IMG/VR virus record: IMGVR_UViG_2576861513_000002
From: an uncultured virus (IMG/VR IMGVR_UViG_2576861513_000002)
Taxonomy: Duplodnaviria; Heunggongvirae; Uroviricota; Caudoviricetes
Direction: 5' to 3' (one strand)
Length of the DNA: 64,000 nt
Both the position numbers and the translations under genes were made by a program. Below are positions 4,402 through 37,362 of the stretch, one piece after another (within the stretch, counting starts at the first letter, position 1; every line of letters begins with the position of its first letter). The notes under the pieces are model-generated. The model was not told where the DNA came from and made no database searches. It was given only the letters and a program-made list of their open reading frames with translations.

Positions 4402-5081
4402 TAGAGTATTGTCCCCCATGCTCCAACATCGAACCCGCCGATGTATTCGTTATCCATATCAAACCCAAAGAATTTAGAACCCTCGGATGGTGCTTCTACC
4501 GAGGGCGTTTCAACGTCACCGGCCCATACGCCAGCTGCTTTAACGGTGAGATAGCCCTGTTTGATAGCGGCGATCAGTTCGAGAGACACATCAGAAATAT
4601 CAGTCTCGGGAAAAACCCAGACCGAGATCGTCATGTCCTGGTTGTCGACGATTTGCATCTTCAGGCCAGAACCTGCGGTCGCAGCGTCAAGGATGGGTGG
4701 CAGCGAATCATTGCGGCCGTCCCAGTTGTTGATGGCGATTTTTGCTTTAAGAACGATGCGGTATGTCTCATCACTCAGAGTGGTGTAGCCCGCATCAGGA
4801 TCATACGGGCCTTGCCATACGCCCTGGTCATATCCGAGCCCGTCAGTGTCCCAGCTAAAATACACCCCGCTTATCGGCTGGCTGACGATGCGACTGCGAC
4901 CAATCCAGAGGCCAAGCGTATCGAGCTGGACGCCGACAGCGGTATCAATATCGAAAGCGCTTACCAGCCCCCGGGTGGCGCCGGTGATATCAATCAGTGG
5001 CCGCGTGCTCAGGTCAACGTGATCAAAAAATTTCGGCTTCGTGGCGTGATAGTTGGTGATTAGGTCCGTGTACTTGCTCAT
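4401..5081 (-). CDS. Baseplate wedge protein (DUF2612-like)
   Basis: FDIDTAVGVQLDTLGLWIG motif; lies between J and fibre. Confidence 0.88.
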   Translation of the reverse strand: MSKYTDLITNYHATKPKFFDHVDLSTRPLIDITGATRGLVSAFDIDTAVGVQLDTLGLWIGRSRIVSQPISGVYFSWDTDGLGYDQGVWQGPYDPDAGYTTLSDETYRIVLKAKIAINNWDGRNDSLPPILDAATAGSGLKMQIVDNQDMTISVWVFPETDISDVSLELIAAIKQGYLTVKAAGVWAGDVETPSVEAPSEGSKFFGFDMDNEYIGGFDVGAWGTIL

Positions 5082-6223
5082 GACGTCACCGTTAGAACAA
5101 TGTTTTCGGGTTTACACGACGCGGATTCGTTGTAGGCGATGATGATGTTTGCCGCCGCTACGCTACCGGCTGATTTGCCAATCAGCAGCTCCTGTATGTC
5201 GTAGTAGCGCGCATTGCCGCCACTCACTACGCCGAGGTTCGCCGGAGAATAAATCCTGCTCAGCAGCACATCGTCACCGATCGTCAGCCCGTTGATGTAA
5301 TCCGCGACAGCCTGCTGAATCTGTACGCCAATTTGCGACGTGTAGCCGTTGAATGCTTTCAGGGTGATATGTCCATAAATTGGCACATCAATAGACCGAG
5401 AAAAGCTGATCACGTGTGGATTGCCGTAGGTGTCCGGTACCGTGACAGAAGTTGTCCCGTAAGTTGCCGTTCCCTGCCCTTTGTTTCCCCGGATTGTCTG
5501 GGTTATTTCGGTAACATCCCCTCCATCGACGATGGCAGAAATGGAATGAGGCGGCAGCCCGTTGCTGTCGGTTGCACCAGTATCATTCTCGTAGAGCTTG
5601 TGACGCGTCACGCCTGCAACGTTGGCGATCGCACCGTCGACACCTTCAAACGGTGTGAGGGATGGTAGCGCTACGCTTTGCCCCTGCCTGATGCGCAGCT
5701 CTGCGTCCGTTTCAGCCGGTGCGCCTACGGTGGCCGCCGCCGGGTTGGTTACTGAAGCCCAGCCACGGGTCGGCGTGTTGATAGTGGTAATTGTCCCGGC
5801 CAGCGCCGCAACCGCTCCGCTGTTTGAACAGGTTGCAGTTACCGTCACGGTACCGCCGACACCGATTGTCACCGAGGCAGGAAGCCGCCAGATCACGTTA
5901 TTCGTGTCTTTCACGGTCCCGTTTGTGATGGATGTCCCGGCGGTACCGGTCAGAAGCAGATCCACGGTAGAGTTCGTCGCTCCCCGGCGCGCGATACCGT
6001 TAATTTTTACGTTACTCGTCAGTGCTGCACCGTAACCCGTAGCAGGTGAGAAGCAGTTATAAACGGAGATGGCCGTGTTGTTGGCATCGTGAATAGCCAG
6101 AGCCACCAGCGCCACCATCTGACCGTCTTTGCTGTCCGGCTCCAGATAAGCGTCACTGCCGTAAATCTGCTGGAAATAGCTTGTCAGGGTATCGAGTATC
6201 GTCTGGTAATCAGGCGCGCTGAT
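5078..6223 (-). pseudogene. Baseplate J-like gene, 3' part (interrupted by the satellite)
   Basis: Reads ISAPDYQTILDTLTSYFQQIYG...ETDAELRIRQ...; in-frame TGA immediately before ISAPDY; 5' part lies at 18911-18982. Confidence 0.92.
6207..6223 (+). repeat. Satellite att site (left)
   Basis: TAATCAGGCGCGCTGAT versus TAATCAGGCGCACTGAT at 18912-18928. Confidence 0.93.
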
Positions 6224-6557: not shown

Positions 6558-7082
6558 TCACCAGTACCGCCGGACAGTACTTAGCGAACATGACAGGCTT
6601 TCTGCTGCCAGCACCTGAGTTAATCCTGACCGTTTACAGCATTGTACCGCCTCACGCCGCTGCGCACTAATCCGCTCAAGACGTAGAGCACCATCAGTAA
6701 CCCGGCGCGTTCTCTGCTTTCGCTGCTCATGTCGAACTACCCGCTGCCTTTCCCTTTCCTCCTCTGCGGCTATCAGTATTTTTCTGGCCTCGATGTCTTC
6801 CGGGTAATTGTTGTACCAGTTGCGTTCGCGATACTGTGCTGGCCTGCTCCTGCTGAGTTTCGCTTCTTCCATCAGGCGCAGTATCACCCCATTGGCGGTA
6901 TCGCTGCGTGCTCTCAATTTCCTGACGGCTTTTTCAGAAACTCCAAAGTGAAAAGCCACCCGGTGATTACTCATAGCACGGTGCAGGTTCAGTACCGTGC
7001 GTAATACGTCAGTAAAGGTCTCCTCCGTCCACCAGATCCCCTTAAACCGGAAGCCATTTTCAGCGGCTGCTAAAACGTTCAT
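6558..7082 (-). CDS. Double-HTH DNA-binding protein; N-terminal HTH resembles helper TerS
   Basis: GAGG RBS; MSNHRVAFHFGVSEKAVRKLR and GLTQVLAAESLSCSLSTVRRYW. Confidence 0.65.
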   Translation of the reverse strand: MNVLAAAENGFRFKGIWWTEETFTDVLRTVLNLHRAMSNHRVAFHFGVSEKAVRKLRARSDTANGVILRLMEEAKLSRSRPAQYRERNWYNNYPEDIEARKILIAAEEERERQRVVRHEQRKQRTRRVTDGALRLERISAQRREAVQCCKRSGLTQVLAAESLSCSLSTVRRYW

Positions 7083-7352
7083 TTTTCCTCACTCTGTCCA
7101 CCATTGGCAAAAAACGGGACGTGCTCACGAACCCTCAAAAAGTCCGCGGCGTATCGATAACGGTAGAATGCGGCCTGCGCTCATGTGATATGCCGCACTT
7201 TGTCGGGCTACAGGCCGCGTCATTACTCATTTCTCCGCATTTTGTTGCTCACCCGTCCGGAAAGCGTGAAAAAGTGCGGTATTATCCAAAAATGGCTAGA
7301 TCGTCGCTTTCAGTCGATGAACCCGCATCACACCGGGAAAGTAAGGAGTTTA

Positions 7353-8378
7353 CTATATTCTCCTTACCCCTCCTCTCAGAGCGTTCTTGAGTGACGGTTT
7401 TTCGCGGAAAAGATGCCCGTAAATATTCAACGTCACCGACGGCCGGGAGTGGCCCACCATGTCCGACACGTCCAGAATATCAACGCCGTTTTTTACCAGG
7501 CTGGACACCGCAAAATGCCTCAGGTCATGAAAGCGCGCTATCCCGAATTCAGAGAGCAGGCGTTTCATCACGCCGGATGTGCTGTAGTTCAGGCTCAGCC
7601 TCTGTCCGTTGCTCCCGGCAATCAGCGGTGTATCCGTTCCCAGCAGCGTTTTATCGAGGCACTCATACAGGCCAACCGGCATATCGACGGAACGGCCCCT
7701 GCCGCGCTTTCTGCCCCGGATAATCCCGCGTGAAGTCAGATGGCAGCGAACCTGTATTTCGTCAGCGCTCACATCCCGATAGGTTAACGCCAACACTTCG
7801 CTGATACGCAGGCCGCAAGCCGCGCCCAGCCAGATAGCAATCCTTTCGCGCCGCTCTGCGCGATCCAGCATGGCTAACACGGTATCTTCATCCGGGATTT
7901 GCCACGGCCTGTCTGCCGGCGAACGGCTCTGACGAACCGGATTATGCGCAATCATCCCGGACCGCATGAGATAAGCAAAAGCCGCGCCGATGTACACAAG
8001 CGACTGTCGGTTAAGCCGCTCGCTAAGCTGGCGTGAAGTGATTTTATTCAGGTTTTTATTCAGCAGGTCAGACGGAAGGTTTAACAGGCAATAGCGGTAG
8101 CGGTCGTAACTGGTTGCCCTGATCCTGTTCCGGTTCAGCCTGTCACGCTGATATCCCAGCCAGAACCAGGAAAGTTTCTGCAGCGTCCAGCGTTTTACCG
8201 CCTCCGCATTGTCTGCCGTTCGCCAGTCGAGGGCTGCCACTTCCAGTTGATACAGCAGCGCCGCCGCATCGTCGATGCTGTGAAAGGTATTGCGTCGCCC
8301 GGTGCGGGTTTCTTTATCCAGCCAGTTAACGACATAACGCAGGCGCTTTCCGGCGCCAATCTCACGGATAGATGCCAT
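7353..8378 (-). CDS. Tyrosine recombinase, paralogue of helper 37363-38367
   Basis: GLRISE, HDLRH, GHS...YGH catalytic motifs; similar to the helper gene along its length. Confidence 0.9.
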   Translation of the reverse strand: MASIREIGAGKRLRYVVNWLDKETRTGRRNTFHSIDDAAALLYQLEVAALDWRTADNAEAVKRWTLQKLSWFWLGYQRDRLNRNRIRATSYDRYRYCLLNLPSDLLNKNLNKITSRQLSERLNRQSLVYIGAAFAYLMRSGMIAHNPVRQSRSPADRPWQIPDEDTVLAMLDRAERRERIAIWLGAACGLRISEVLALTYRDVSADEIQVRCHLTSRGIIRGRKRGRGRSVDMPVGLYECLDKTLLGTDTPLIAGSNGQRLSLNYSTSGVMKRLLSEFGIARFHDLRHFAVSSLVKNGVDILDVSDMVGHSRPSVTLNIYGHLFREKPSLKNALRGGVRRI

Positions 8379-8386: not shown

Positions 8387-8971
8387 CTACACACCCTGCA
8401 AAGGTAATTCCAGAGGACACCAGCTAAACACTGCTACCGGATGCTCATCGTTTCGCTGGCGGATCATGTTGATGAGAATATCCGCACGGGGTGATGACCT
8501 CATAATCGCGGCCAGCGTGGCTATTTTTGACGCCTCCGGGTTTCTCGCCTGATATTCGCCAATTTCAGCGCCCACAAGAGTTTTCAGCAATACATCGCCC
8601 TCCATGTCCGGATTTTCCCGCCGCATCTGGTCAAACTCTGCAGCGGCCGTCCGGCGGATAGGTATGTAAATCCGATCCTCTAAATCGCGTAATTTTCGGT
8701 GCGCATGCATCAGTACAGTGCCTCGTTTACCGCCCTCCTTCAGTTCCCCGAGTAATCCGGCGATGCGGCCACGAAATGCGGACACCTCGTCCTGTGGTAC
8801 AGGCGAATCAGGAATATAGCTCTCCAGAAGCGCTAACCTTGCCCGTATACGTTCTACAGCAGACACATTATTACTTACCGCTTCATCGGCCAGCACCTGC
8901 CTGTATGCAGGTAAACTTTCAATTTCCTGCGTATCAGAGCTGGTGTTTGCATTAGTAACACTATTTTTCAT
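8387..8971 (-). CDS. Hypothetical satellite protein
   Basis: 194-aa ORF ending 8 bp before the recombinase. Confidence 0.7.
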   Translation of the reverse strand: MKNSVTNANTSSDTQEIESLPAYRQVLADEAVSNNVSAVERIRARLALLESYIPDSPVPQDEVSAFRGRIAGLLGELKEGGKRGTVLMHAHRKLRDLEDRIYIPIRRTAAAEFDQMRRENPDMEGDVLLKTLVGAEIGEYQARNPEASKIATLAAIMRSSPRADILINMIRQRNDEHPVAVFSWCPLELPLQGV

Positions 8972-9453: not shown

Positions 9454-10116
9454 TCATTGTGGTTTTCCTGTATTGCTTCCGCCGGACTGTACGCCGCCGT
9501 GAGTATGATTAACCTGGCTAATACCGTTAGCAGTCTGGTCGCCAGTGGAAGTTATCGAGCCGTTTACCTGTACTGGCCCGTTAAGGGTGATCTGTGGGCT
9601 GGTAATAGTGATAGCCCCACCAGCGGCCACTTCAACGAATGCCGAACCATCATCAGTGCGAAGTTGTGCAGCGCTGGTGCTGATACCGCTGATTTTTCGC
9701 GCCTGCGACTGCGGACCCGGTATAACGAACGCATCAGACAGATCCAAAACTCTCCCGTCAGCCCTCTCCTGTACACCGCCGTTCTGCCACCAGAAATCAA
9801 TACTACGCGACGAAAACACAATCAGGCATTCATCACCTTCTTTAACCGGGAAAGTCAGCGTAACGCCGCCACCGCGCGGGAAAACCACGGGCAAATCCTC
9901 AAGGATCGGATGGCGAACGGATTCATACTGGAAATCCTCAACCATTGTGCCGGCCTTTGTCATTCTTGCCGTAATGGCTATATCAACGTCGCAGGTGACA
10001 GTTTCCGGGTCGAATGAACGAATAACTCCGGGTAACGCATTGGTCACAGCTGCTTTGGCGTTATCCTGTACAAGCTGTGCTACATCCTGCTCGTCTGCAG
10101 GTCGAATGAATGGCAT
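9454..10116 (-). CDS. Satellite-encoded membrane-puncturing baseplate spike (Gp138/gpV-like)
   Basis: PVVFPRGGGVTLTFPVKEGDECL, IDFWWQNGG, C-terminal HTHGGVQSGG; paralogue of 19336-20091. Confidence 0.92.
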   Translation of the reverse strand: MPFIRPADEQDVAQLVQDNAKAAVTNALPGVIRSFDPETVTCDVDIAITARMTKAGTMVEDFQYESVRHPILEDLPVVFPRGGGVTLTFPVKEGDECLIVFSSRSIDFWWQNGGVQERADGRVLDLSDAFVIPGPQSQARKISGISTSAAQLRTDDGSAFVEVAAGGAITITSPQITLNGPVQVNGSITSTGDQTANGISQVNHTHGGVQSGGSNTGKPQ

Positions 10117-10125
10117 AGTCTCCCC

Positions 10126-10476
10126 TCACTCCTTCACGCGCTTACAATCAAATGTGCCAATTATCCGCCCCTGATTCAGGTTTGTGCGGATAAGCTCGAC
10201 GTTTAACCAATGCTTTTTGCTGCCGTCAGGATGAATATATTCAAACCCATACAGATTCCCATCACTAGCAGGCATGAGCGTCATCTCGACTTTCATTCCA
10301 TTTTGTCCAAGCTCAGTAATCTTTTGCGATGTGACCATTTCACCGTTTATCTCAGTCATTTCCCCTACTCTGGCAACCAGTGTAAAATTTCCACATTGAG
10401 TAGTTACGACGCTATTCGCTTCTGCCATACCGTTATATGAAATGACAACAGCCAGTAGGAAAAGTAGTTTTTTCAT
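10126..10476 (-). CDS. Exported (signal peptide) two-Cys protein, paralogue of 20570-20923
   Basis: MKKLLFLLAVV...AEA; shares QCG, INGExVTSQKI, LMPAxDGNxYGFEYI, IGxFxCKxV with the helper gene. Confidence 0.85.
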   Translation of the reverse strand: MKKLLFLLAVVISYNGMAEANSVVTTQCGNFTLVARVGEMTEINGEMVTSQKITELGQNGMKVEMTLMPASDGNLYGFEYIHPDGSKKHWLNVELIRTNLNQGRIIGTFDCKRVKE

Positions 10477-11573
10477 TCCGCTCCCCATCTATCATTTGTT
10501 GATTGTGAATATAGATCCGTATTGCCTCTCGCCTCGCACGCCAAATCCATATACCATGCTTGGCCTCGCGTGTCGCCTGTGTAACTGATATACCTGACCT
10601 TATACACACCATCAGTTGCTACACTGGCAGGCTGAGAAGTTGGCGGCGCTTCAATATATTGGCCTTTATCATCCTTGATATTTCCAATGGGGATAAGGTT
10701 GCCGTTTGTTTCTTTCTCAGAAAACCGCCCACTGTAAATATCCTGACGGGATAGCGCGGTACGATATACAGAAGCCTGATCCAGCTGAATGAGCCCGTTC
10801 AGGTGTATCTGTGGATTAATCAGACATTTGACATTAACACCTGCGCCGATTGTCTGTTGTGGCATGCCGATAAGCCCAGTATTAGCGTTAAGAACCACCG
10901 CTTCATGAGTCGCCTTGTCTCTGGAAACAATATCGACTTTTCCATAGTTGAATTTCCAGGTGGCTTTGCACTGCGCGGCCACTTCATCGAGATAGTTGTG
11001 AACATAGCCAAAAAGTGCTCGACCGCGAGGAAATACCGTTGGTGGAAATTCAGGAACAATACCGCGAGAAATACCGTAAGGCTCCAGATTGATCATTAGC
11101 GCCTCATAAATATCTTTCGTGGTATACCCCTTACTAATATTTGTGTTTATAAATGCGCTGGTAAATGCCTCCAAAGAATCACAGGCTTGCACCTGAATCC
11201 ACGAATCAACGCCATTATCTTTACCTGTCCAAGTAAAACGTATATCACCGCTGAAAATGACGCCGTGGTTTACACCGTTAACCTGTCCCACTTCGCTTGC
11301 TGATATTTCACGCGCGATACCCACATCACTCGCCCTTACATCCGGTGCAAGACCGTCATACCCCGTAATCATGACGATTTTTGCAAACTCACGTTGCATA
11401 ATCCGATTTTGCGTGTGCGAGGAAAGGTTGTAAATCTTAACAGTGGCTACAGCAGGCCATTTGTTATCGTTACGCTCTATTTGAAAAGTAACTTTGAAGT
11501 CACTCAGGCTGACCCCTTGCCCGTTCTCTCCCACAAGTTGTAGTTCGAAATGCCTCATCCAGTTTTTTGACAT
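10473..11573 (-). CDS. Satellite-encoded baseplate hub protein
   Basis: MSKNWMRHFELQLV...YTGDTRGQAWYMD; paralogue of 20926-21990. Confidence 0.88.
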   Translation of the reverse strand: MSKNWMRHFELQLVGENGQGVSLSDFKVTFQIERNDNKWPAVATVKIYNLSSHTQNRIMQREFAKIVMITGYDGLAPDVRASDVGIAREISASEVGQVNGVNHGVIFSGDIRFTWTGKDNGVDSWIQVQACDSLEAFTSAFINTNISKGYTTKDIYEALMINLEPYGISRGIVPEFPPTVFPRGRALFGYVHNYLDEVAAQCKATWKFNYGKVDIVSRDKATHEAVVLNANTGLIGMPQQTIGAGVNVKCLINPQIHLNGLIQLDQASVYRTALSRQDIYSGRFSEKETNGNLIPIGNIKDDKGQYIEAPPTSQPASVATDGVYKVRYISYTGDTRGQAWYMDLACEARGNTDLYSQSTNDRWGAE

Positions 11574-12519: not shown

Positions 12520-14862
12520 TTACTTCTTCGTCGGGTTGGGATAAGGCTGTGGCAGCCAGTCCTCAGCACTTCCTGAAAGTTCCACGTTGGTTACAACTCC
12601 TCGCGTCTTTCTCTCTTTCCGGTATTCGTGATTAAACTCGCGCATTGCGCTCTCCATGCCCTCAGCGAATTTATTAAGGGTTAGCGGCTTATCGAATCCG
12701 TTAGCCTCCAGAAAGGCCAGATACGCATGATAGAGATACACGCGCGGGTATAGTGGCGGATTGCGGTTCCCTACCAGCATTCCCGTACACTCTGACAGCT
12801 TTTCAAGGTATGCGCAGAAAGCATAAAGCGGGTCTGTTTTCTGTTTAACCTCCAGCGCTTCCTCACTGTTCCTCTGTTCCAACAAAAGCGCCCTTGCTTT
12901 CTCTGGATCAGAAAAGTTAGCCAGGAGCCGGCGGACAATAACCGGGATTTCTGCGGATATCTTTTCCGACAAATCGGGGTCTTTGTCTTCCTCTCGAACC
13001 CGGTTATTAAACTGAAAAATAACCCTACGGCGGGCAACGCCTCCGGCTCGTTCAGTGAAAATCATCGGAGTGTTGTTTGTAGCGACTACAACGGCCCTCA
13101 GAACGGCGGTGTACTGGTGTTCATGCTTCGGGTCAATCTCTACGGCATCGCCGCCCGTAATCGCTTTTATACCCGTTCCCTCGCCTGAATATTTTGGCTG
13201 GTCTGGTAGGGTTATCATACTTTTGCCTACGAACTGCGCCCGACCTCTGGCGCTATCCAGTGCGGCCATATTTCCGCTGGCCGTGTTGTGTTCGCCAGCC
13301 AGCATAGTAGCAATGTGAGTGAAAACGCTTTTGCCGCTACCTCCCTCCCCGGTTATCTCAAGAAAAAGCTGCCAGTCGTAGCGGTTCGCCAGCACCATAA
13401 AAAGCCCAGCGGCGATCCGCTTCATTTTAAGTGCGTCTCTTCCTGCTGTGTAACTTAGCCATTTATGGAAGTTTGGCGCATGGTCATGAAGGTTTTCACC
13501 AGGCTCCGGCGGCGTATAGATCACGCCGTTATCGTTAGTGAGCCAGTTGTGTAATGAATGCTGCGAGAAAGTCCCGGTTTCCATGTCGTACACGCCATTT
13601 TTGAACGGGATCAGGCTGCGGCGAGGTTGGCCCATAACCGGAATAACAATCTTCAACGCTTCAATAACGTTGTTTACTGAACGTTTGCTGAAATTAGTCT
13701 GATTTTCGTTGTAGATAGCTACCATTTCGCGGCTTAGTTCTAATGGTGCCGCTTTTATCCATACTCCTTCGCGGTACAGATACACAGCCTCGCTCTCTGC
13801 GTGAATGGCTATGCCCTCGTAGCGGTCTGCCAGCATCAGCGCTTTTTCATTATCCGCCATCTGGATCAGGTTGAGTTCTCCGCGCCCGCGCTTTTTACCG
13901 CCATCGACTACTTTAAGTTTTGCGCCCACACTTTCCCCCTCCGGCTGATACATCGAATCGTTAAATGCTGCTATAGCGGCTTCCAGTCCGTTTTGTCGGT
14001 GGTAGTCGTTCCAGTCCGCCTTGCAGTCCACAGGGGGCAAAGAAACCCAGCCAGCAACGGCTTTAGCGGCTTTCTCTGCACACTCCTTACCTGTGTTAAC
14101 TTTCACTTCTCCGCTTCTGTCACTTTCGGCGCACTGGTCATTATCTGCAGCAATGATGATCCACGCGTTCTGGTATTTTTTGCGCATCACCTGAGCAACG
14201 GGCAGCAGGTTCCCGGCGTCAATAGCTGCGATAATTGTCGCCTCAGTGCGGAACTGCTGAACCGAAAGCGCCGTTGCCAGCCCTTCGGCGATAATCACCG
14301 TTTCCGACGTTGCGCCGGAATTAACCACGCAAAAAGAGCCTTTCTTCACCGTTCCGGCCACCAGCCGCTTACTGCCATCAGGTTTAATCACCTGTGCGCC
14401 AGTCGCCGCACCAGCACCGTTTTTCAGCACCAGCAGCAGCGATCCGTCGGACAGCATCGGGAAGGGGCATTGAAGCCCCTTTGATGTAAGGTAAGCAGAC
14501 TGCCCCGGAGAGGCTTTCGCGGCCAGCGCCGCAACTTTCCCGGCGATATCCGTTTGAGGCTTCTCTCTGGCTTGCTTCGGTTCCGGCATAGGCAGCGACA
14601 TAGCTTCGGCCACCAGCTCAGCCGCTTCTCTCGGGCCGCACTGGTTGACCTTCATCACCAGATCCAGCCCAGTACCCGCACCACAGTGCGAACAGAAATA
14701 AGTTCCCCGGTTATCTTTATTGTCGAACCGGTAGCGAGTGTTGCCACCACACGCCGGACATGGCCCTTCTGCGCTGTTTGTAGGAATGGCAAGGCGCTCC
14801 ATAATTGCAGGCCAGTTATTATTAGCCCTGCTACGAATTTCATTAATGAAATTATCTTTCAC
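12520..14862 (-). CDS. P4 alpha-like primase-helicase
   Basis: Zn finger CPACGG...CSHCG, TOPRIM IAEGLATA / AADND, Walker A GEGGSGKS. Confidence 0.95.
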   Translation of the reverse strand: MKDNFINEIRSRANNNWPAIMERLAIPTNSAEGPCPACGGNTRYRFDNKDNRGTYFCSHCGAGTGLDLVMKVNQCGPREAAELVAEAMSLPMPEPKQAREKPQTDIAGKVAALAAKASPGQSAYLTSKGLQCPFPMLSDGSLLLVLKNGAGAATGAQVIKPDGSKRLVAGTVKKGSFCVVNSGATSETVIIAEGLATALSVQQFRTEATIIAAIDAGNLLPVAQVMRKKYQNAWIIIAADNDQCAESDRSGEVKVNTGKECAEKAAKAVAGWVSLPPVDCKADWNDYHRQNGLEAAIAAFNDSMYQPEGESVGAKLKVVDGGKKRGRGELNLIQMADNEKALMLADRYEGIAIHAESEAVYLYREGVWIKAAPLELSREMVAIYNENQTNFSKRSVNNVIEALKIVIPVMGQPRRSLIPFKNGVYDMETGTFSQHSLHNWLTNDNGVIYTPPEPGENLHDHAPNFHKWLSYTAGRDALKMKRIAAGLFMVLANRYDWQLFLEITGEGGSGKSVFTHIATMLAGEHNTASGNMAALDSARGRAQFVGKSMITLPDQPKYSGEGTGIKAITGGDAVEIDPKHEHQYTAVLRAVVVATNNTPMIFTERAGGVARRRVIFQFNNRVREEDKDPDLSEKISAEIPVIVRRLLANFSDPEKARALLLEQRNSEEALEVKQKTDPLYAFCAYLEKLSECTGMLVGNRNPPLYPRVYLYHAYLAFLEANGFDKPLTLNKFAEGMESAMREFNHEYRKERKTRGVVTNVELSGSAEDWLPQPYPNPTKK

Positions 14863-15302: not shown

Positions 15303-15493
15303 TTCTTATCTCCCTTACCCAATTCGGCAATTAATGCGCGGTGTATTTCATGATTGAAGTCACACGCAATGGAAATCAGGTTTAGAAGCGTGACAGAGCA
15401 TTCATCTGTGGCTTTCTCCAGAATAGTTTCGTAGAGCGATGCGGCCAGTGCAGATTTATATTCGGCCTGGATCAAACTGATTGACTCACGCAT
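15299..15493 (-). CDS. Hypothetical satellite protein
   Basis: Translationally coupled small ORF. Confidence 0.65.
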   Translation of the reverse strand: MRESISLIQAEYKSALAASLYETILEKATDECSVTLLNLISIACDFNHEIHRALIAELGKGDKK

Positions 15494-16364
15494 TAGATAC
15501 CTCCATTGCCAGGCGAGACTGAATCGCTGCGGCTTTGCTGCCTAACTGCAGATAGGTACGAGTTATCGCTGGGTTGCTATGCCCAAGCATTTCAGAGGCA
15601 ATTAAAAGCCCCTGCTCGCCACCGGCTGACATGAGGTTAAATGCTGCGATCTTCCGGCTTGAATAGGCACTTAGGCGCAATTTTGTATTGATAAAGCGGG
15701 TAAACCACGCCATCACGCTTTGGAGTTTTCGCCAGATGGTCTGGCGGGTAACGCTACCTTCCAGACACTGGCAACGGTTACTTTCGATTTGAGAGCGGGA
15801 AAATATCAGGTCGTCCTCTACCAGATTCCGATCCTGACGTTCGCGAAGCCGTTTGATGATGCCCGGCGGTAACTGTTTGGTGTCGTGCTTAACGTCTGCT
15901 TTAGCCACCAGCCCGAATACTATCGCCTGTTCTTCGTCGGTCATATCCGCTGCCAGCGCATCACAGTTGATGCTGTCCCACTTCATGTAGGCGATATGGT
16001 CAGCGGCAAGCCTCGCGGCGTCCTTGCGCTGCTGGCGCACGATTTCAATGCCTTTGCGGGTCGCCCGCGCTTCGGCAGCTTTGGTCTGTTTGGCAACGAT
16101 AATTGTCGCCTGCCCCGTTTCCCAATTGATGCAGGAATAGCGCAGGTTGCAAACGTCGCTGGTACGCCAGCCGGTTACGGTCGCAATGTCCCACCAGAGC
16201 AGCACCCAATCCGGTTGTGTCTGCTGTATGCGTTCGCGTAGCTTGCGCTGTTCGTCACGGTCATAAACTGGCGTCATTGTGCGACTGCCCTTTGTGCTTG
16301 CCGCTTTAACGACATTGCCGCGCAGTTCACGGGCTTTGGCTGTCAGTGTCTGGAGGTTAAACAT
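15486..16364 (-). CDS. Tyrosine recombinase-family protein
   Basis: TGWRTSD, YSSRK, LGHS...TYL motifs. Confidence 0.85.
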
Positions 16365-16602
16365 TGTGCACCTCCAGCATTTCCGGAGTCAGGAGGTTCA
16401 GGCCATAAGATCCACAGCCAGAATCACGCAGGCTGCTTTCAGTGCGGATTTTTGCGGCAAAGGTCAGATTCCAGCATGGAAAGGTATCGCGGGCTTCTTC
16501 TTCGGTATCAGCCATTGTGCGCAATACGATTGGTGTGCAGTCGTGTTTTTTCGGTGTGGCCAGAAACAGCCAGGTATATTTGGGGCAGGTTGGTTTAGCC
16601 AT
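16357..16602 (-). CDS. Icd-like host cell division inhibitor
   Basis: YTWLFLA...ADTEEEAR...LTFAAKIR; follows a C4-type RNA. Confidence 0.8.
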
Positions 16603-16655
16603 TTTAGCGGCTCCTATGTCGAATGAAGGAGTCTCGCCAGATGCTGCTAAACATG

Positions 16656-16734
16656 GGTGGCGAGACGTGACGGGGTTAGCAGACTGGTGACATAGAAACC
16701 AGCAGGCCGAAGCCTCCCCACCACGCCCCGCCAT
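16656..16734 (-). ncRNA. C4/CI-type antisense immunity RNA
   Basis: Cloverleaf-like ATGGCGGGGCGTGGTGGGG...CCCCGTCACGTCTCGCCACC; its loops CTATGTC and CTGCTAA are complementary to sites at ~16800-16822 and ~16615-16652. Confidence 0.8.
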
Positions 16735-16928
16735 AAATCGGGGGTATAGGTGAATTACGGGCGTAAAAATACCGCTATACGGAAATCAGCGGCTACCCGC
16801 TATGTCAGTCAGGCTGCTAAACCCGGCACCCGTTTTGTGAGGTGCGAAATAATCATAACCATGCCCGCCATGTTGACGCAAGCGCTTTATAACATCCGGC
16901 GAATTTTTCCGGGGAAAGAACCTCGCTT

Positions 16929-17032
16929 TATGAACACTATGAATACCCTATGAATACCTTAGATAAAGGTGTTCATAGCCTATCTATCTGATTTTTAATA
17001 CCTATATTCAAATCATGAACACTATGAATACC
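16929..17032. repeat. ATGAA(C/T)AC iteron cluster (putative satellite ori)
   Basis: Six copies at 16930, 16939, 16950, 16969 (inverted), 17015, 17024. Confidence 0.78.
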
Positions 17033-17172
17033 TTTGTGCATTTTTCTGCAAACATTCCACCGCCGCCCGATGAAATGCCTTTCTCTGGCTGGTGTAAGTT
17101 ACCGTTGCTGGCAACAGACAATAAAAAAGGCTTGCCCCTTTCGGTAACAAGCCCCGTCTATTTGCTCCGCTT

Positions 17173-17385
17173 TCATGCGGTACAGATCCCGCGCTTTTCA
17201 CTTTGTTTCCCGATCCACGCTTCAACCTCGTCACGATACCAGCAGTTACGGCCTCCCACTTTAAAAGGCATCGGAAAACCGTTTCCCTCATCTTTGAGGA
17301 AATCATAGAACGCAGAATCAGAACGGTAGCGAAGACGCGCTTTAACCTCGCCTTTAAGTAGTATTTCACTATTCGATTCAGACAT
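17173..17385 (-). CDS. alpA: AlpA-family regulator / excisionase
   Basis: FPMPFKVGGRNCWYRDEVEAWI. Confidence 0.88.
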   Translation of the reverse strand: MSESNSEILLKGEVKARLRYRSDSAFYDFLKDEGNGFPMPFKVGGRNCWYRDEVEAWIGKQSEKRGICTA

Positions 17386-17508
17386 AAAAACCTCCGTATA
17401 TATATGAATCAATTATAACAAATTTGAATAAAAAAGATACATTTCGGCGTTTGAATGGAATAAAAAAAAACTGGCATCTAGCCAGCAATAAACGTCGAGT
17501 TTTGAGGA

Positions 17509-18741
17509 CTAACCTATCAGCCTTAATCCTTTATCGCCCTTTGTCTCAAGCAGTTCTCCGCGCTCTGCGCTATCGACATAATCCCCCCACCACTGCATGA
17601 GCATACGCCGCTGTTCAAAGTAATCAGTACGATTGTAGATATTGCGGATCGCGTTCCTGCTTCTGTGAGCAAGTGCCGCCTCAATAACATCAGGGTTAAA
17701 CCCTTCTTCATTCAGCACAGTAGATGCAAGCGACCTAAGCCCGTGAGTAACTACCTCTCCGCTTAGCGATGTTTTATGAATAGCGATCTGCCCGGTACAT
17801 TTCCCAATCGGCTTATCTCCCTTTTTGCCGGAAGGAAAAATAAACGCCCCGCGCCGCCATTTTTCAGCATTGCGTAAAACAGCTATTGCTTGCGCGGACA
17901 GCGGTACAGCGTGTGGCCTTTTCCCCTTCATTCTTTCAGACGGAATTTTCCAAACAGCACTGTCTAAATCAATTTCGTCCCAAACAGCCAGGCGAGCCTC
18001 AGAGGGCCTTACCATCGTTAAAAGCTGGAAGTAAACACACAGCCTTATCGGCTCCCACATACTCAGCCCCAGCCATTCAGAAAGGAACACAGGCAATCTG
18101 CCTTTATCCATCACGGGCATTGGTACGCTTCTTTTGGCTGGGAAAGCCTTGCCGATTTTTAGCAGGCAATTATGGTCAATGACTCCGGTGTTTACCGCAT
18201 AATCCATTACCGAATTGAGCACAACTATCATCTTTTCCACAGAGGCGGGACGATCTGCAAACTCTCTCATTGCCTGAATTGTTGAGGCGGCATTCATTTT
18301 ATGTACCGGCTCGTCACCAAGAACACTATTCAGCGTTTTTAAAGCCCCCTCGTAGCCTCGAATTGTATTGCTGCGGATTCCCTCCGTGATTTTTATTTTC
18401 AGCCAGTTATCAGCGATAACAGAAAACTGCTGTGCATGTTTTTTCCGCTTGTCGCTGAGTTCTTCTTTTTTAACCTCATTCGGATCTATCCCTCTGGCAA
18501 CTTTCCTTCTGGCTTCTTCTCTCGCCTCTCTCGCTTCTGCGAGACTAAATTCAGGATATCGCCCAATAGTTAAGGTCTGCCTTTTTCCGGTTATGGGGTG
18601 CGCATAGCGGAATCGCCATGATTTCCCACCGGACTTAGTTACATACAGAAGGAGTCCAAAGCCATCATGAAGACTGTAATCTTTAAGCTGTGGCTTCGCG
18701 TTCTTAACTTCTGCGTTGGTAAGTGGTTTAACAAGCATCAT
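17509..18741 (-). CDS. int: P4-family integrase of the satellite
   Basis: DGFGLLLYV, GRYPEFSLAEARE, VRPSEAR, HGLRS, LAH...YNRTDY; adjacent to att. Confidence 0.96.
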   Translation of the reverse strand: MMLVKPLTNAEVKNAKPQLKDYSLHDGFGLLLYVTKSGGKSWRFRYAHPITGKRQTLTIGRYPEFSLAEAREAREEARRKVARGIDPNEVKKEELSDKRKKHAQQFSVIADNWLKIKITEGIRSNTIRGYEGALKTLNSVLGDEPVHKMNAASTIQAMREFADRPASVEKMIVVLNSVMDYAVNTGVIDHNCLLKIGKAFPAKRSVPMPVMDKGRLPVFLSEWLGLSMWEPIRLCVYFQLLTMVRPSEARLAVWDEIDLDSAVWKIPSERMKGKRPHAVPLSAQAIAVLRNAEKWRRGAFIFPSGKKGDKPIGKCTGQIAIHKTSLSGEVVTHGLRSLASTVLNEEGFNPDVIEAALAHRSRNAIRNIYNRTDYFEQRRMLMQWWGDYVDSAERGELLETKGDKGLRLIG

Positions 18742-18910
18742 CAGCCCCTTTCACTGCTTCCGCTGTGGTTTCTTTCGTAGTCCCACTTATGGCGAATTGA
18801 ACCCCAGATAGACGAATGCAATCGAATGGATTCAAACACCATAAGCAGGGACTAAACCCAGCAACACCGCGCTTTATTGAACGTTAACGTATTGATTCAT
18901 AGATATTAAA

Positions 18911-18982
18911 ATAATCAGGCGCACTGATCCCCTCAGCGGTTACCGTTGCCGATAAGCCGAGTGTGTCCAAATTGAGGGCCAT
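18911..18982 (-). pseudogene. Baseplate J-like gene, 5' 24 codons
   Basis: MALNLDTLGLSATVTAEGISAPDY; ATG abuts the stop of the upstream wedge gene; reads on into FNIYESIR-stop inside the satellite. Confidence 0.92.
18912..18928 (+). repeat. Satellite att site (right)
   Basis: 16/17 match to 6207-6223. Confidence 0.93.
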
Positions 18983-19336
18983 TTATGCCTCGCTGGTTAC
19001 TGTCGTTGTTCCGTAGATAGTGTCGATTTCAGCGAAGAACTGGACGCGGCGCGTCGTAGTGTTCACTGTCGTATTGAAAGAGAGAATGGATTTAACGCCC
19101 CGCGTTTCGAGGATACGCTTACGGATCGCCAGGTTGTAGGTTTCTGGCTTCTGTTTACCGAGTACGGACTGAATCCACGGTGTGCCCTCGGTAGTGTCGA
19201 GGAACCATTGCCCATACCATAATTCGAATCGCGTTTTTACCGCCTGGGCCACGGCCTCGGGTGAGTTAATCAGCCAGGTATCATCGCCGCTGCCAAAGGT
19301 GTAATCACCGTCGGCGTCTTCACGTCTGTATCGCAT
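18983..19336 (-). CDS. Baseplate wedge / sheath initiator (gp25/gp46-like)
   Basis: GQWFLDTTEGTPW motif; lies between spike and J. Confidence 0.82.
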   Translation of the reverse strand: MRYRREDADGDYTFGSGDDTWLINSPEAVAQAVKTRFELWYGQWFLDTTEGTPWIQSVLGKQKPETYNLAIRKRILETRGVKSILSFNTTVNTTTRRVQFFAEIDTIYGTTTVTSEA

Positions 19337-20091
19337 CAGTTTGGCGCTCCTGTATTACCGCCGCCGGTCTGTACTCCGCCGTGCGTATGCGTCATCAGAC
19401 TCTTACCACCGGCTTTTACATCGTTAGTCACCGTGACAGGGCCGAGCATCGTCGCGGTACCGCCACTTGCGCCCATACCCTGAGAGAGATTCCCGTTTAT
19501 TGTCACGTTCCCGTTAAGCGTGATAGTGGGTGATGTGATCGTGGTTCCTCCTTCTGCTGTCGCCGTCAGCGCGCCGGGGGTTTTAACCGTGATGTTATGA
19601 CCTGCGGCCACTTCAACAAACGCAGCGCCATCATCAGTGCGCAGCTGCGCGCCACTGGTGCTGATTCCGCTGATTTTCTGTGCCTGTGACTGGGGCCCGA
19701 CGATACAGAACGCATCCGATAAATCATGCACCCGGTCGTCGACAGGCTCCTGCACCCCGCCGTTCTGCCACCAGAAATCGATGCAGCGATCGGCGAAAAT
19801 CACCAGGCATTCATCACCAGCTTTAACCGGGAACGTTAGCGTGCAGCCGCCCCCGCGCGGAAATACCACCGGCACATCCACCAGCAGCGGGTAATTTTTG
19901 GTAACGCGGTTGCCGTCGTTATCGGTTTCAACAGAGCGGATAGCAGGCTGCACAACCGCCGTCACCGCGTCAGGGTCGAATGACTGAACGATTCCAGGCA
20001 AAGCGACGCGGATCTGGTTTTTTGTCGTGTCCCGCTCAGATTTGAATGTTTCGGCAAGGTCGCCGCTGCGGGTCTGGTCAGATACTGCCAT
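19336..20091 (-). CDS. Helper baseplate spike (Gp138-like)
   Basis: OB-fold motifs, beta-helix repeats, HTHGG tip. Confidence 0.92.
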   Translation of the reverse strand: MAVSDQTRSGDLAETFKSERDTTKNQIRVALPGIVQSFDPDAVTAVVQPAIRSVETDNDGNRVTKNYPLLVDVPVVFPRGGGCTLTFPVKAGDECLVIFADRCIDFWWQNGGVQEPVDDRVHDLSDAFCIVGPQSQAQKISGISTSGAQLRTDDGAAFVEVAAGHNITVKTPGALTATAEGGTTITSPTITLNGNVTINGNLSQGMGASGGTATMLGPVTVTNDVKAGGKSLMTHTHGGVQTGGGNTGAPN

Positions 20092-20109
20092 TTGGTAGGC
20101 TCCAGAAAG

Positions 20110-20133
20110 CAAAAACCCGCCGGGTGGCGGGTT
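20110..20133 (-). terminator. Intrinsic terminator
   Basis: AACCCGCC-loop-GGCGGGTTTTT. Confidence 0.72.
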
Positions 20134-20554
20134 AGTTGAATGTTTTATAGGTAACAGTTCGGTTTTTGTCTCCTACCGTCCCGTAGCACTCTATTGTATG
20201 AGTGATTCGACTATTGAAGGCGTTCATTCCAGAAAAATGCAGGGTAAAGTAATAAACTTGCTTTCCATTTTTCTCGTCGATCCCGCTTTCAGTCTGTTCG
20301 GTTTCGAATGTGTCCGGCAACGATAAAGAAGATCGGGCGATATCCTTACAGGTAAATATCACTTCATTCTTTAAAAGAACATCCTCTGACAAAGTAGGAG
20401 TATTACTTGATTGTTGCGCTGCAGCCTTTTCAGGGGCTTCGGTATTACCAGACACTTTGTCAGTTTCATTGTTTTTATGGTTTCCAATTAAATAACCTAC
20501 AACAATGACAACTAATAAAACTATTTTCTTTGACCTGCTGACCGCCATAAACAA
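20132..20554 (-). CDS. Membrane-anchored moron protein
   Basis: N-terminal hydrophobic segment, AT-rich, two Cys. Confidence 0.7.
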   Translation of the reverse strand: MFMAVSRSKKIVLLVVIVVGYLIGNHKNNETDKVSGNTEAPEKAAAQQSSNTPTLSEDVLLKNEVIFTCKDIARSSLSLPDTFETEQTESGIDEKNGKQVYYFTLHFSGMNAFNSRITHTIECYGTVGDKNRTVTYKTFN

Positions 20555-20569
20555 AGTCCATTAATTACT

Positions 20570-20923
20570 TTAATCAGAAACTTTTTTGCATGGGAAAGAG
20601 CCGATAACTTTCGGCGCGTCCATACTATTCTGCAGCAGTTGGACATTCAGGAATCGCGTTTCGGTACCCGGACGGCGAATGTATTCAAAGCCATAATTGT
20701 TGCCATCTTTAGCAGGCATAAGCCCCATGTCTGCCTTCATACCGTTTCCATTACCGAGAGTTTTGATTTTCTGGGAGGTAACAGTCTCACCATTAATCCT
20801 GAACAATGAGTCAGGAACCAACTCCAATTTGTAACCACCACATTGCAATGTGATGCCGCCGGGATTTGCAGCAAAAGCTAACCCAGGCAGGAAACAGAGT
20901 CCGATAACAATCAACTTTTTCAT
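20570..20923 (-). CDS. Exported two-Cys protein
   Basis: MKKLIVIGLCFLPGLAFA signal peptide; paralogue in the satellite. Confidence 0.85.
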   Translation of the reverse strand: MKKLIVIGLCFLPGLAFAANPGGITLQCGGYKLELVPDSLFRINGETVTSQKIKTLGNGNGMKADMGLMPAKDGNNYGFEYIRRPGTETRFLNVQLLQNSMDAPKVIGSFPCKKVSD

Positions 20924-20925
20924 TC

Positions 20926-21990
20926 TTATCCTTCCCGCTGTAAAGACGACGACGAACGGAGGTCCGCCGCGCCACGCGCTTCGCACATCATATCCATGTA
21001 CCACGCCTGGCCCCTTGTGTCGCCAGTGTACATAATCCCGCGCACAATATAAACGCCATCCGTTGCGATGCTGGCAGGCTGCGCCGTGGTGCCGCTGAGC
21101 GTGATATTTCCGTCCGTGTTCTGGTCGGTGATCTGCCCACCGGCCATAGCGATATCGTTGTTCGACAGTGCGGTGCGATACACGGAAGCCTGATCCAGCT
21201 GAATGAGCCCGTTAACCCGGATGTTCGGGTTAATCAGCGCGCGGACGTTTACGCCGTTGCCGATGGTCTGCTGCGGCATGCCGATCAGCCCGGTGGCGCT
21301 GTTGAGCACAATCGCGTCGTGAACATACTCGTTATTCGCCACCATTTGGCGCTGACCGTCCACGAATTGCCATGTTGCCCCACATTGTCCGGCCACGTTA
21401 TCCATAAGATGCCGTGTCATGCCGAACAGCACCCGGCCCCGGGGGAAGACGGTAGCAGGCATTTCAGGCGTCAGACCTTCGGTAGCACCTTTGGCCTCGA
21501 AGTCTTTCATTAGCGCGCGGTTCACGTCAGCGACCGTATAACCGGCCGCCAGCGTCTGCGAGGTTATGCTGGTGGCAAAAGCCAGATCCGTATCGGCTGC
21601 CTGAATCAGGACGTAGGAATCAATAGGGCTGTCTTTACCAGTGACCGAGTAGCGAATTTCGCCGCAGAAAATCAGCCCGTAGTTGCGGCCATCACTCTGG
21701 CCCACGTCCGCCGCGTCGACTTCACGCACGGTCCCGACGTCGCTTGCCGATACCTCCGGCGCGATACCGTCGTAACCTGCAATCAGCCGCACTTTCGAAA
21801 ATTCCTGCCCGGTGATGCGGTTCACCGTATCGGCTGACAGGTTGTAAATCTTGAACGTTCCCACCCGGGACGCGCTGCTGATGTTGAACCAGTCGATCGT
21901 AAAGGTCACTTTAAAATCGCTGAGCTCAATACCCTGCCCGTTCTCGTCCACGAGCTGCAGCTCGAAATGTCTCATCCAGTTCTGTGACAT
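20926..21990 (-). CDS. Helper baseplate hub protein
   Basis: Size and position between plug and spike. Confidence 0.85.
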   Translation of the reverse strand: MSQNWMRHFELQLVDENGQGIELSDFKVTFTIDWFNISSASRVGTFKIYNLSADTVNRITGQEFSKVRLIAGYDGIAPEVSASDVGTVREVDAADVGQSDGRNYGLIFCGEIRYSVTGKDSPIDSYVLIQAADTDLAFATSITSQTLAAGYTVADVNRALMKDFEAKGATEGLTPEMPATVFPRGRVLFGMTRHLMDNVAGQCGATWQFVDGQRQMVANNEYVHDAIVLNSATGLIGMPQQTIGNGVNVRALINPNIRVNGLIQLDQASVYRTALSNNDIAMAGGQITDQNTDGNITLSGTTAQPASIATDGVYIVRGIMYTGDTRGQAWYMDMMCEARGAADLRSSSSLQREG

Positions 21991-21992
21991 GC

Positions 21993-22295
21993 TTACTCCA
22001 TTGATACCAGTAAATGACTGCGGCCGCCCAGGTCGGTTTTTGTCGGATAATCCTGTGTGCTGTCGTCACAGACCACCACCAGCTTAAAGCCAAGCCCCAT
22101 ATAGGCGTACTGCGCCAGCAGGTCAGCGCCCGTGACGAGAGGAATACCGGAGATTACCGGCTCCCCTCTGTCGTTCTGCAGGTCCATAATCCAGTACATA
22201 TCGCGCCAGGTGATACTAATCCGCCAAGTGGTCCCCGCCAGGATGATGCTGAATTGCTGGTTATCCGCTGTAAGCGGGATTTCCTGAATTGCCAT
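21993..22295 (-). CDS. Baseplate plug-like protein
   Basis: GIPLVTGADLLAQY motif; synteny. Confidence 0.78.
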   Translation of the reverse strand: MAIQEIPLTADNQQFSIILAGTTWRISITWRDMYWIMDLQNDRGEPVISGIPLVTGADLLAQYAYMGLGFKLVVVCDDSTQDYPTKTDLGGRSHLLVSME

Positions 22296-25728: not shown

Positions 25729-25731
25729 CTG

Positions 25732-26172: not shown

Positions 26173-26183
26173 TCATGTTCTCC

Positions 26184-34700: not shown

Positions 34701-36317
34701 TCACGCTCCGGCCAGTTTGGCCCAAGTATCAAGAGAGGAATCCATCGGCGCGTAATTAATCATTACGGCGTCTGCAAGGTTCGGCGATTTTGTGCCTTCC
34801 GGCTGTTTATCCACGAGGATTTTACCGACGGCGTTTTTCGACCATGTAGGCTGTGAAAGCTCCATCAGCAGGCGGTCAATATTTTCTATCTCGCTGCTTA
34901 TCGAAATGATTTCGTCGGGGTTGTAGTCCATCCCGTTCAGCGCGCGGAAGGTGTTACGAAACAGCTTGCGAAGATGCCACCAGCTCTGTGCTTTCGCGTT
35001 CGCGAAGAAGTCTTTATTCAGGCGCGCCGCTTTACCGTTATCACCAGGAACGGCTTCATCTTCCGGATCGAATACGCTACCGCTACCACGGAAAGGTGTA
35101 GCTGTGATTGTTCCCCGGCCTTCAGCCTGCCTGAGCTCGTTTATCACGCGAGCATCGCCACGCGCACCAGCACCCAGACCGTCCTCATCGAAACGGAACT
35201 CATCCAGACCGTAATCGTCACAATACCCAAACGATTTAACGACAGAAGCGTAGATGTCGCTCCCAATGCCAGACCATTCGTGAACGTTCTGCAGAAGGAA
35301 GCCATAGCGGCAAGAAAAGCCGTTTTTGTCTTTCCCTTCGTCCGCGATATCCATTGCGCCGAGGCGCTGGCCGCTGGGCTGAATACCCAGTTTGATATGC
35401 GCGTCGACGGCAGCCTGCACCCATTCAGAAGGAATGAGAATCCCCTCTGTTGATGCGCTGTAGTTCAGGTCCAGTTCCTGAGCAACGATAATCGGATCAT
35501 CAATTTTCAGACATTCGTTGCGGTACCACTCGTCATCCTTGCGCGGGTCGCTGCGCCAGTGGAACGTAAACACCGGGATGTTTCCGCTGTGGCGCTTTTT
35601 AGCAAACGGGTTATTCATGCCGTTGACCGAAGAGAGGTCTATACGGCAGCGGGTGGTCTGTGATAGCGCAGCATCGATGAGATATGGCCGTTTGAGGAAT
35701 GCCGACTCATCCACAAAATAAAGCGTGGTACGGTCACCACGGCCAATGTTATCGCCAGCCTCTCCCTTGATGATCGCCCCTGATTCTGGAAATTCCACCT
35801 CCATGAATCTGGAGTGTTTTTTTTCATTCCAGCCACCGCGAAACTCTACCGGGAGCAGTTCGATAAATTTTCTTGCTTTCCAGAAAAGTGATTTTGGGTC
35901 GCTCGTTGAATCGACGTACATCTCTTTACGGCTACCAAAACCAATCACCATATCTTTGTTAAACAGACACAGGGAACAGGCAAGGCCGACAGAAGTCCAG
36001 CTCAGCCCCATTTCACGGCTTTTCTCTGTGAGCCCATTTTCACGATTTCCGCGCCTGTCCATGATCCAGTGAATCCATTCCTCCTGGCGTGGGAACAGCA
36101 AAAACGGGATGGTGGCAGGCAGGCCATAATCGAGGTTACGCGGGTCCGTCGTCATACCCCAGTCGATGATGAACTGAGCCGGGTTAGTGCGGTAAAACTC
36201 ACGGAGTGCCGGAAGCATTTCAGGCGCTTTCCTGATCCGCTCCAGCCTCTCCATTCTCCACTCAAACACGGCGGTATAGTCCGGTTTGCGGAAGTCAAAG
36301 GGGAACGGGATCGGCAC
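34701..36317 (-). CDS. terL: Terminase large subunit
   Basis: KSREMGLSW Walker A-like, [20 protein letters not shown]; probable GTG start. Confidence 0.92.
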
Positions 36318-36342
36318 AGAAAAATTCCTCAAAAACGCCCCG

Positions 36343-37118: not shown

Positions 37119-37362
37119 ACTTCCGCCTAAGTCAATGTGATTATTTTTTGTTCAAAATCCAATTTCTCCGATCCGGGTGCGGCGTATCACGCGGTAAATT
37201 CTGGCGTGCAGGCCGCGTCCTCTCTGGTGCCAAGTTCGGCATATCAGAGGGGGTAAAAATGCGGCATATCCTTTTTTTCGGGAAAACTGCGATTTGATGC
37301 CCGGAGGCCGCGCAGAATGGGGAGATAGTGGATCGCCCTAATATTTCCACTATGTGGATAAC

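Follow-up and report, generated by a model that had tools for sequence, protein, structure and literature searches.

The 64,000-nucleotide stretch of DNA analysed here (the window; IMG/VR virus record IMGVR_UViG_2576861513_000002, Caudoviricetes) holds a prophage, the helper, that is interrupted by a satellite element. Both elements carry the same arrangement of a tyrosine recombinase gene, an inverted repeat at its end, a noncoding gap, and a gene for a helix-turn-helix (HTH) protein, which in the helper is the small terminase, TerS (Table 1). An earlier, sequence-only reading had described a gap of about 250 bp followed by an HTH gene in both, and the gaps are indeed 270 and 244 bp. On balance we favor the view that the satellite harbors an anciently captured packaging-initiation module, in which a TerS derivative resembling the Rpp proteins of phage-inducible chromosomal islands (PICIs) would be paired with a lox-like recombinase and site that interconvert circles and concatemers.

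Table 1. Features of the satellite, the helper, and their modules in the window.
Feature	Coordinates	Strand	Basis or remark
Satellite protein, 174 aa, putatively TerS-derived	6558..7082	-	family-level homology to TerS
Domains of satellite 174-aa protein			small beta hairpin + HTH1 (~39-59), long helix, HTH2 (~135-174)
Satellite cis region, 270 bp, long-form architecture	7083..7352	-	CCGCA-type boxes, both strands
Satellite CCGCA-type box cores	near 7145, 7169, 7193, 7215, 7235, 7275, 7323
Satellite inverted repeat, perfect 8-bp arms	7341..7367	.	straddles recombinase stop codon; GGA-N13-TCC register
Satellite secondary tyrosine recombinase, 341 aa	7353..8378	-	PF00589; R-K-H-R-H/W-Y residues present
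Helper TerL	34701..36332	-	phrog_2 E 3.7e-29
Helper TerS, 200 aa	36516..37118	-	weak TerS PHROG matches, best 1.1e-5; directly before TerL
Domains of helper TerS			N-terminal HTH, helix/hairpin center, C-domain 126-165, tail
Helper cis region, 244 bp, short type-A form	37119..37362	-	three direct boxes
Helper box cores	near 37260, 37235, 37178
Helper inverted repeat, perfect 8-bp arms around 13 bp	37325..37353	.
Helper second tyrosine recombinase, 334 aa	37363..38367	-	between Rz and terS
Helper primary integrase	51223-52395
Helper baseplate J, 3' part cut off by satellite	5078..6223	-	PF04865
Helper baseplate J, 5' part	18912..18982	-	reading-frame analysis
Satellite attachment core, distal end	6207..6223	.	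17-bp direct repeat, 1 mismatch vs other end
Satellite attachment core, integrase end	18912..18928	.	direct repeat; element = 12,705 bp
194-aa protein without family match	8387..8971	-	directly upstream of satellite recombinase
Satellite copies of helper tail genes (baseplate hub, phrog_3443 protein, spike)	9454..11573	-	family matches
Satellite P4-type primase-helicase	12520..14862	-	family matches
AlpA-like regulator	17173..17385	-	PF05930 E 0.0057, 17 bits vs cut-off 21; expected position
Satellite primary integrase, arm-type	17509..18741	-	family match; direct repeats at element ends

Secondary recombinases and the adjacent inverted repeats

The satellite recombinase is a paralogue of the second recombinase of the helper, as the sequence-only reading had proposed (45% identity over 328 amino acids, E 2e-87), and the motifs quoted there are all present in the alignment. 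The catalytic residues said to be intact are so in both enzymes. R191, K224, R287, H310, and Y320 are unchanged in 19 of 19 aligned relatives, down to 26% identity, while H284, the first histidine of HxxR, is kept in both window recombinases and is tyrosine in 4 of the 19. The satellite recombinase is evidently under purifying selection (dN/dS 0.067–0.077 in three pairwise comparisons of satellite copies). In a tree of 27 recombinases, the helper types form one clade (support 100/98) and the satellite types another (93/99, which lies under the tool's threshold for a firm branch). This separation points to an old capture and not to a copy taken from the resident helper, so that of the earlier claim of copying the homology stands and the resident source does not. 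No Cre entry was found among the 10 PDB matches of the recombinase.

The inverted repeat at the end of each recombinase gene had escaped the sequence-only reading, as had the interruption of the baseplate J gene described below. The strict repeat pattern occurs in 68 of 71 helper loci, and in the other three, inspection by eye shows the spacing unchanged, with a single altered base or variant arms. In L208, a chromosomal island whose recombinase is 38% identical, the arms are symmetric and spaced as in the window, and the gap is colinear with the satellite gap (score 187, given without a shuffle control). Arm positions not set by the search pattern are complementary in 12, 3, 13, 13, 14, 7, and 15 of 17 pattern matches, counts in which two spurious matches were kept; a slid-register control gave mostly 0–4, but 11–13 at a few positions. 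At four arm positions the helper and satellite types have different bases, yet complementarity is preserved and the spacing is fixed. The central seven bases vary most among helpers, and the three bases flanking the center are not symmetric. Helper-type arms are also kept in three loci (L056, L065, and L069) whose TerL proteins differ in family (no BLAST match to the window TerL at E 0.001). Because the arms change with the recombinase at fixed spacing and persist across TerL families, we assign the repeat to the recombinase, of which it is probably the core site.

Other roles for the repeat were considered. An RNA hairpin or terminator was ruled out by the fixed 13-base spacing and by the lack of any terminator-like site call, and a TerL cut site is disfavored, since helper-type arms persist with unrelated TerL. 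A perfect 9-mer at 37353–37361, which we take to be DnaA-box-like, overlaps the left arm of the helper repeat and is not found in all helpers.

CCGCA boxes, TerS, and the satellite HTH protein

The cis region had also been described as copied. It is not a direct copy of the gap of this helper but is colinear with the long gap of other helpers. Same-strand local alignment of the two window gaps is at the level of chance (85 of 300 shuffles reach the score, and 26 of 200 in a second test), yet the gaps share 7-, 8-, and 9-mers in excess (30 vs. 8.7, 18 vs. 2.4, and 12 vs. 0.6 expected; 0 of 500 shuffles reach each count). The discrepancy arises because helper gaps exist in a short form (239–251 bp, 68 of 71 loci) and a long form (292–294 bp, the remaining three). 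The satellite gap aligns colinearly with the long gap of helper L031 (163 of 268 positions identical; score 198, null maximum 91) and with that of helper L055 (score 178, null maximum 103), and 0 of 200 shuffles reach the score in each case. When aligned in opposite orientations, the window gaps score 86, which 1 of 300 shuffles reaches, owing to shared inverted boxes.

The type of box pairs with the recognition helix of TerS. Among 66 helper loci, a TT..R helix occurs with GCCGCA boxes in 32, AT..N with TCCGCA boxes in 29, and IT..R with GTCGCA boxes in one; four were unscored. Both main types sit behind recombinases 97–100% identical to that of the window, and two Arsenophonus elements show a further D/N helix change along with CCGCA/CCGAA boxes. 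The boxes therefore follow TerS and not the recombinase. The satellite gap is a probable packaging-initiation site, and we infer that packaging would start at the box array.

The helper TerS is an HTH protein encoded before TerL, and its tail follows the TerL family. A fold search gave a weak match to 2ao9 (E 0.16), and its model, which is of low confidence (pLDDT 67.5), had no structural match at E 0.001. As the tail changes with the TerL family, it probably binds TerL. The satellite protein has lost this tail, so the usual recruitment of TerL would not be possible for it; also absent are the central hairpin and the shared C-domain of TerS. The two HTH segments quoted in the sequence-only reading are both in place and have 9 of 21 residues in common. 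The family of the satellite protein is small (10 representatives at E 1e-10) and under selection (dN/dS 0.21–0.25 in three pairwise comparisons).

The TerS ancestry of this family is based on its longer members and on a bridging protein, P0048. Six longer members have a C-terminal domain that matches residues 125–160 of TerS (hhalign 97.4%, E 1.3e-11). A search with the satellite profile brought up P0048 (E 2.6e-6 in 1.84 billion), which combines a clearly TerS-like N-terminal domain with the second HTH of the family and the C-domain; its match to TerS (E 4e-12) covers the HTH as well as the C-domain. For two long members, the accession number directly follows or precedes that of the recombinase, and P0048 may be linked to recombinase P0010, the two having contigs of equal length. 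By these matches, the satellite HTH family is a remodeled TerS in which the DNA-binding domain was kept, the hairpin gave way to a long helix and a second HTH, and the tail was lost, and the window lineage is one that additionally lost the C-domain. HTH2 resembles the C-terminal HTHs of replicase-type proteins. Pfam matched the satellite protein only with PF10668 (E 0.03, on HTH2), and an atlas search gave HTH_23/PriCT clusters (best 0.85), which is a lead only. It is plausible that the satellite protein redirects terminase.

Distribution of the module and architecture of the satellite

Searching by TerS alignment, we found the recombinase 239–294 bp upstream of TerS in 71 of 75 viral loci, the other four having no upstream DNA. 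Among 50,697 phage records, TerS and the recombinase match the same three and are adjacent in two. The arrangement recurs in the phage-plasmids pTP33 and those of Arsenophonus, and the module spans at least four TerL families. Its order, spacing, and boxes are kept in four element backbones, those of the window, L003, L087, and L208. A TerS profile matched only one of 401 order-level genomes (G001). Viral scans with P0048 and P0043 gave no locus, nor did P0039 match any plasmid. Among 5,426 complete E. coli genomes, none was found to have the satellite module, though members of identical clusters do carry E. coli names. A 16.8-kb Arsenophonus plasmid (L105, 244–3293) has recombinase, gap, TerS, and TerL as well as bacteriocin genes but is otherwise free of annotated phage genes; it is possibly a packaging-only parasite.

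The prophage lies at the 3' end of a tmRNA gene, between flanking repeats at 1492–1530 and 52516–52554, and its genes in the window include a DUF1073 portal, DUF2213, the major capsid, and genes for a contractile tail. Near-identical TerS clusters bear Enterobacter and E. coli names, which points to these as hosts. The satellite is inserted in baseplate J. The reading frame is broken after 24 codons and picked up again at the other 17-bp repeat, and the two parts sum to 1200 nt, the length of the J gene in phage EKP1. The same insertion occurs in L002, L097, and L090. A metagenome contig, L089, is the joined end-to-start form of the satellite, which therefore excises or makes head-to-tail multimers. 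The Gram-negative PICI core genes according to SatelliteFinder are an integrase, an AlpA-type regulator, a primase-replicase, a capsid morphogenesis gene, and a small terminase (PMC10085698). The satellite has the integrase and the primase-replicase, and a C4 RNA as well; no capsid family was found among the satellite open reading frames scanned, four of which had no family at all. The 194-amino acid protein encoded upstream of the recombinase occurs in the close satellite lineage (L001, L002, L003, L087, L088, and L097) and was undetected in L208 and L084.

Three E. coli satellites (L107–L109) with a 63%-identical integrase are embedded in DUF2213-type helpers. L108 and L109 end with a gene for a full DUF2280 TerS, which shares 65% identity with the TerS of one of their helpers; the third sister has no TerS in this distal slot. 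All three elements (about 16001–29325) are inserted in related helpers with the DUF2213 gene on one side and the cement gene on the other, a second embedding site for a helper-embedded lineage outside the published clade. A third tyrosine recombinase-like gene, in the early zone of the window satellite (15486–16364), is 95–96% conserved in L107–L109 and lacks the usual HxxR histidine.

The hub, phrog_3443 protein, and spike of the satellite are paralogues of helper 19336–21990. Hub alleles vary: L001, L002, and L088 have a hub ~90% identical to that of the helper and no spike, and longer runs of tail genes occur in L003 and L108. The copies possibly give rise to chimeric tails. Contig L001 (1–7742) has near-identical ends and joins satellite distal genes to helper J, DUF2612, and tail-fiber parts without an integrase or primase, as either an assembly chimera or a rearranged circle. 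A second island at the tmRNA site (52640–60258) has, by labels from sequence reading, a P4-type integrase and an AT-rich operon for a 994-amino acid histidine kinase-like protein, a response regulator, and a nucleosidase-like protein, probably a defense system. Labels of the same kind place methyltransferase-like, glycosyltransferase-like, and DUF115-like genes between Q and the lysis genes of the helper (40213–42219).

A proposed packaging role and its alternatives

The homology of the three module parts, their linkage, the selection on them, and the co-variation of box with helix and of arm with recombinase are evident at the level of sequence. The late region of the helper holds the second recombinase, an inverted repeat at its end, and boxes that, in the mechanism we favor, would be read by the TerS encoded next. 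An ancestor of the satellite would have taken the whole module, and the lineage would have kept it under selection while its parts diverged. Helper TerS would bind the boxes. With its two HTHs and without the TerL-binding tail, the satellite protein would act in the manner of Rpp on the long, partly inverted satellite array and bias the helper terminase to satellite DNA, away from the short array of the helper. Each recombinase would recombine its own repeat, lox-fashion, so that late in infection the replicated circles would be joined into concatemers to supply headful packaging; alternatively or in addition, it may cut monomer circles out of injected DNA. The diverged arms would prevent recombination between satellite and helper. 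Without the satellite, the prophage measures 38,319 bp, or 3.0 satellite lengths (38,319/12,705), and about three satellite genomes would fit into one helper-sized head. One Gram-negative PICI is described as packaged in phage-length concatemers (PMC10111431). More tentatively, the recombinase may be a working part of the packaging cycle at a lox-like site in the place of lambda cosN, where it would make the substrate or ends and close them after injection.

The mimicry of the helper's packaging-initiation locus proposed in the sequence-only reading is supported by gap homology, the co-variation of boxes with the TerS helix, the descent of the HTH family, and the DUF2280 TerS of the sister satellites. 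The comparison of the satellite protein with TerS that it called for gave a divided answer, with matches from the long relatives and P0048 and no direct one from the window protein itself. Several points weigh against our view. Direct BLASTP of the satellite protein against TerS found nothing (E 0.68), and Foldseek and wide structural searches with its model gave generic HTH and coiled-coil matches (best Z 6.8, on HTH2). HTH1 alone matches TerS weakly (93.5%, 27 columns), and the window protein, lacking the C-domain common to its long relatives, is by its sequence without the domains that would join it most simply to TerS or TerL. In a hidden Markov model control on 4,075 open reading frames, drawn from the collected loci and thus TerS-enriched by construction, one unrelated HTH frame of 4,004 outranks all 61 scored TerS; in the reverse control, at most one outranks nine satellite proteins. 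The module loci are kin and not independent, and in the YP3 record recombinase and TerS are not adjacent. The pTP33 and Arsenophonus elements also encode RecT, so substitution for absent homologous recombination does not fully account for the recombinase; no single-strand annealing protein is among the annotations of EKP1 or YP3. One island (L084, 9690–10516; its cargo includes PAAR and lysozyme-like genes) has a long gap and HTH gene, no recombinase, and only a helper-type left arm, so that the enzyme is either dispensable there or lent by the helper. The satellite is 11,875 bp long in L002 and 12,901 bp in L097, and the ratio of 3.0 to the helper is therefore not fixed. Lastly, one box of the satellite array is of the helper's type A (type B at the same place in L087), and helper TerS may therefore need no help in reading the array.

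This last point suits a different explanation, which we regard as rather unlikely, in which helper TerS reads the satellite array directly and the HTH protein, without joining terminase, either competes for CCGCA boxes on helper DNA or regulates the transcription of its own gene or helper terS. The missing TerS center, C-domain, and tail of the window protein and the replicase-like character of its second HTH are in keeping with it, but a pure DNA competitor would have little reason to keep the TerS C-domain, as six long relatives and P0048 do, and sister satellites have a full TerS in the same slot. We give a lower probability still to the idea that the recombinase makes the genome ends. The repeat would be cut with a 7-bp stagger and protein on the 3' ends, box-bound terminase would package from the end, and the same protein would reseal the ends after injection, in a layout that mirrors lambda cosN-cosB-nu1. 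The spacing of repeat, boxes, and terS does resemble that of cos (PMC9026076), and the variable central 7 bp, the arms that follow the recombinase and not TerL, the late-operon position, and the spread over at least four TerL families agree with such a role. However, literature searches found no precedent, L108 and L109 have the same TerL family with other TerS types and no such recombinase, and L084 has none either.

It is improbable that the recombinase is a DNA-binding or -bending factor, like IHF or RinA, that aids TerS assembly or terS transcription at the repeat without strand exchange. Its fixed position beside the boxes could be read this way, as could a promoter-like match over the satellite repeat (7379–7352), though such matches are at chance level (3 found, 3.5 expected); five catalytic residues unchanged in 19 of 19 sequences speak otherwise. 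We give least credence to passive capture, with the module as late-zone cargo that the satellite could do without. PICIs do capture helper late-gene clusters and occasional extra integrases, one captured capsid gene was dispensable (PMC10111431), and this satellite has captured tail genes as well. Against passive carriage stand the purifying selection on the module genes, the order, spacing, and boxes kept down to 38% recombinase identity in four backbones, and a TerS copy that was remodeled rather than decayed.

Our favored reading has partial counterparts in known systems. In phage P1, Cre and loxP, with pac, place a tyrosine recombinase and an inverted-repeat site near the packaging start. 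The present elements, temperate phages and phage-plasmids, likewise have a tyrosine recombinase with a nearby inverted repeat. The repeat may be lox-like, with symmetric arms, compensatory changes, and fixed spacing, but the three bases beside the central 7 bp are asymmetric. Unlike in P1, the gene belongs to the late genes of an integrating prophage and is 244 bp away from terS; it is swapped along with the DNA-binding part of TerS and was taken over by satellites. Rpp (RppA/B/C) and the PICI cos site are known from E. coli EcCICFT073 (PMC6739421, PMC9026076), where the layout of site and gene is as in helper terS and Rpp is proposed to lack a TerL-binding domain (PMC9026076). Similarly, the satellite encodes a TerS-like DNA-binding protein, shorter than TerS and tailless, after a homologue of the probable helper packaging site. 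It differs from Rpp in coming from another TerS family, in its second HTH, and in its myovirus-type, probably headful helper; moreover, the site keeps helper-type boxes, which PICI cos sites lack, and recombinase and repeat stand in the place of cosN. No chain with Rpp or a lambda Nu1-type winged HTH appeared among five PDB matches (E up to 10) or in the fold-search lists. The sisters L108 and L109, like SaPI-type satellites, have a TerS homologue at the distal end, but theirs is full-length with a helper-like tail, unlike the window protein.

Helper-embedded PICIs capture late genes, and nine carry secondary integrases, two of them near the helper's, to which the available text of PMC10111431 assigns no role. 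As in those elements, the satellite sits in a helper late gene, co-oriented with it, and runs from integrase, AlpA-like gene, C4 RNA, and primase to a late zone of captured helper genes. However, its integrase falls outside the 11capE clade (64.3 bits, 26% identity; cut-off 400 bits), and the doubled attP motif has no match in the window at up to three mismatches. Its target, baseplate J of a DUF2213/DUF3383 helper, is not among the lambda-cognate sites in the available text of PMC10111431, which also draws no link between secondary integrases and TerS, and neither the attachment core nor DUF2612 was found in its supplement text. As far as the accessible parts of the sources go, a headful helper–satellite pair comes without such a module (PMC4936722), and the pTP33 preprint names an integrase/recombinase without comment (10.64898/2026.10.03.756212). 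We found no published description of the recombinase–TerS module or its satellite copy in the open-licence literature. Each ingredient has a known analogue, while the combination and the place of the recombinase in packaging appear undescribed.

That satellites, despite deep divergence, have retained recombinase, repeat, and TerS boxes together is so far the strongest indication that the second "integrase" of these phages works in DNA packaging or in the conversion of circles and concatemers. If the recombinase, and not TerL or host recombination, makes the packaging substrate or the genome ends, satellites must capture recombinase, site, boxes, and remodeled TerS together, and would have evolved an enzyme and site that form an orthogonal pair, as well as an Rpp-like hijacker of independent origin. 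The retention of the unit offers a concrete reading of the role-less secondary integrases of helper-embedded PICIs and puts natural specificity variants on offer, with three box/helix types and several arm types. It further suggests that an Rpp-like hijacker arose a second time, independently, with a probably headful myovirus as its helper.

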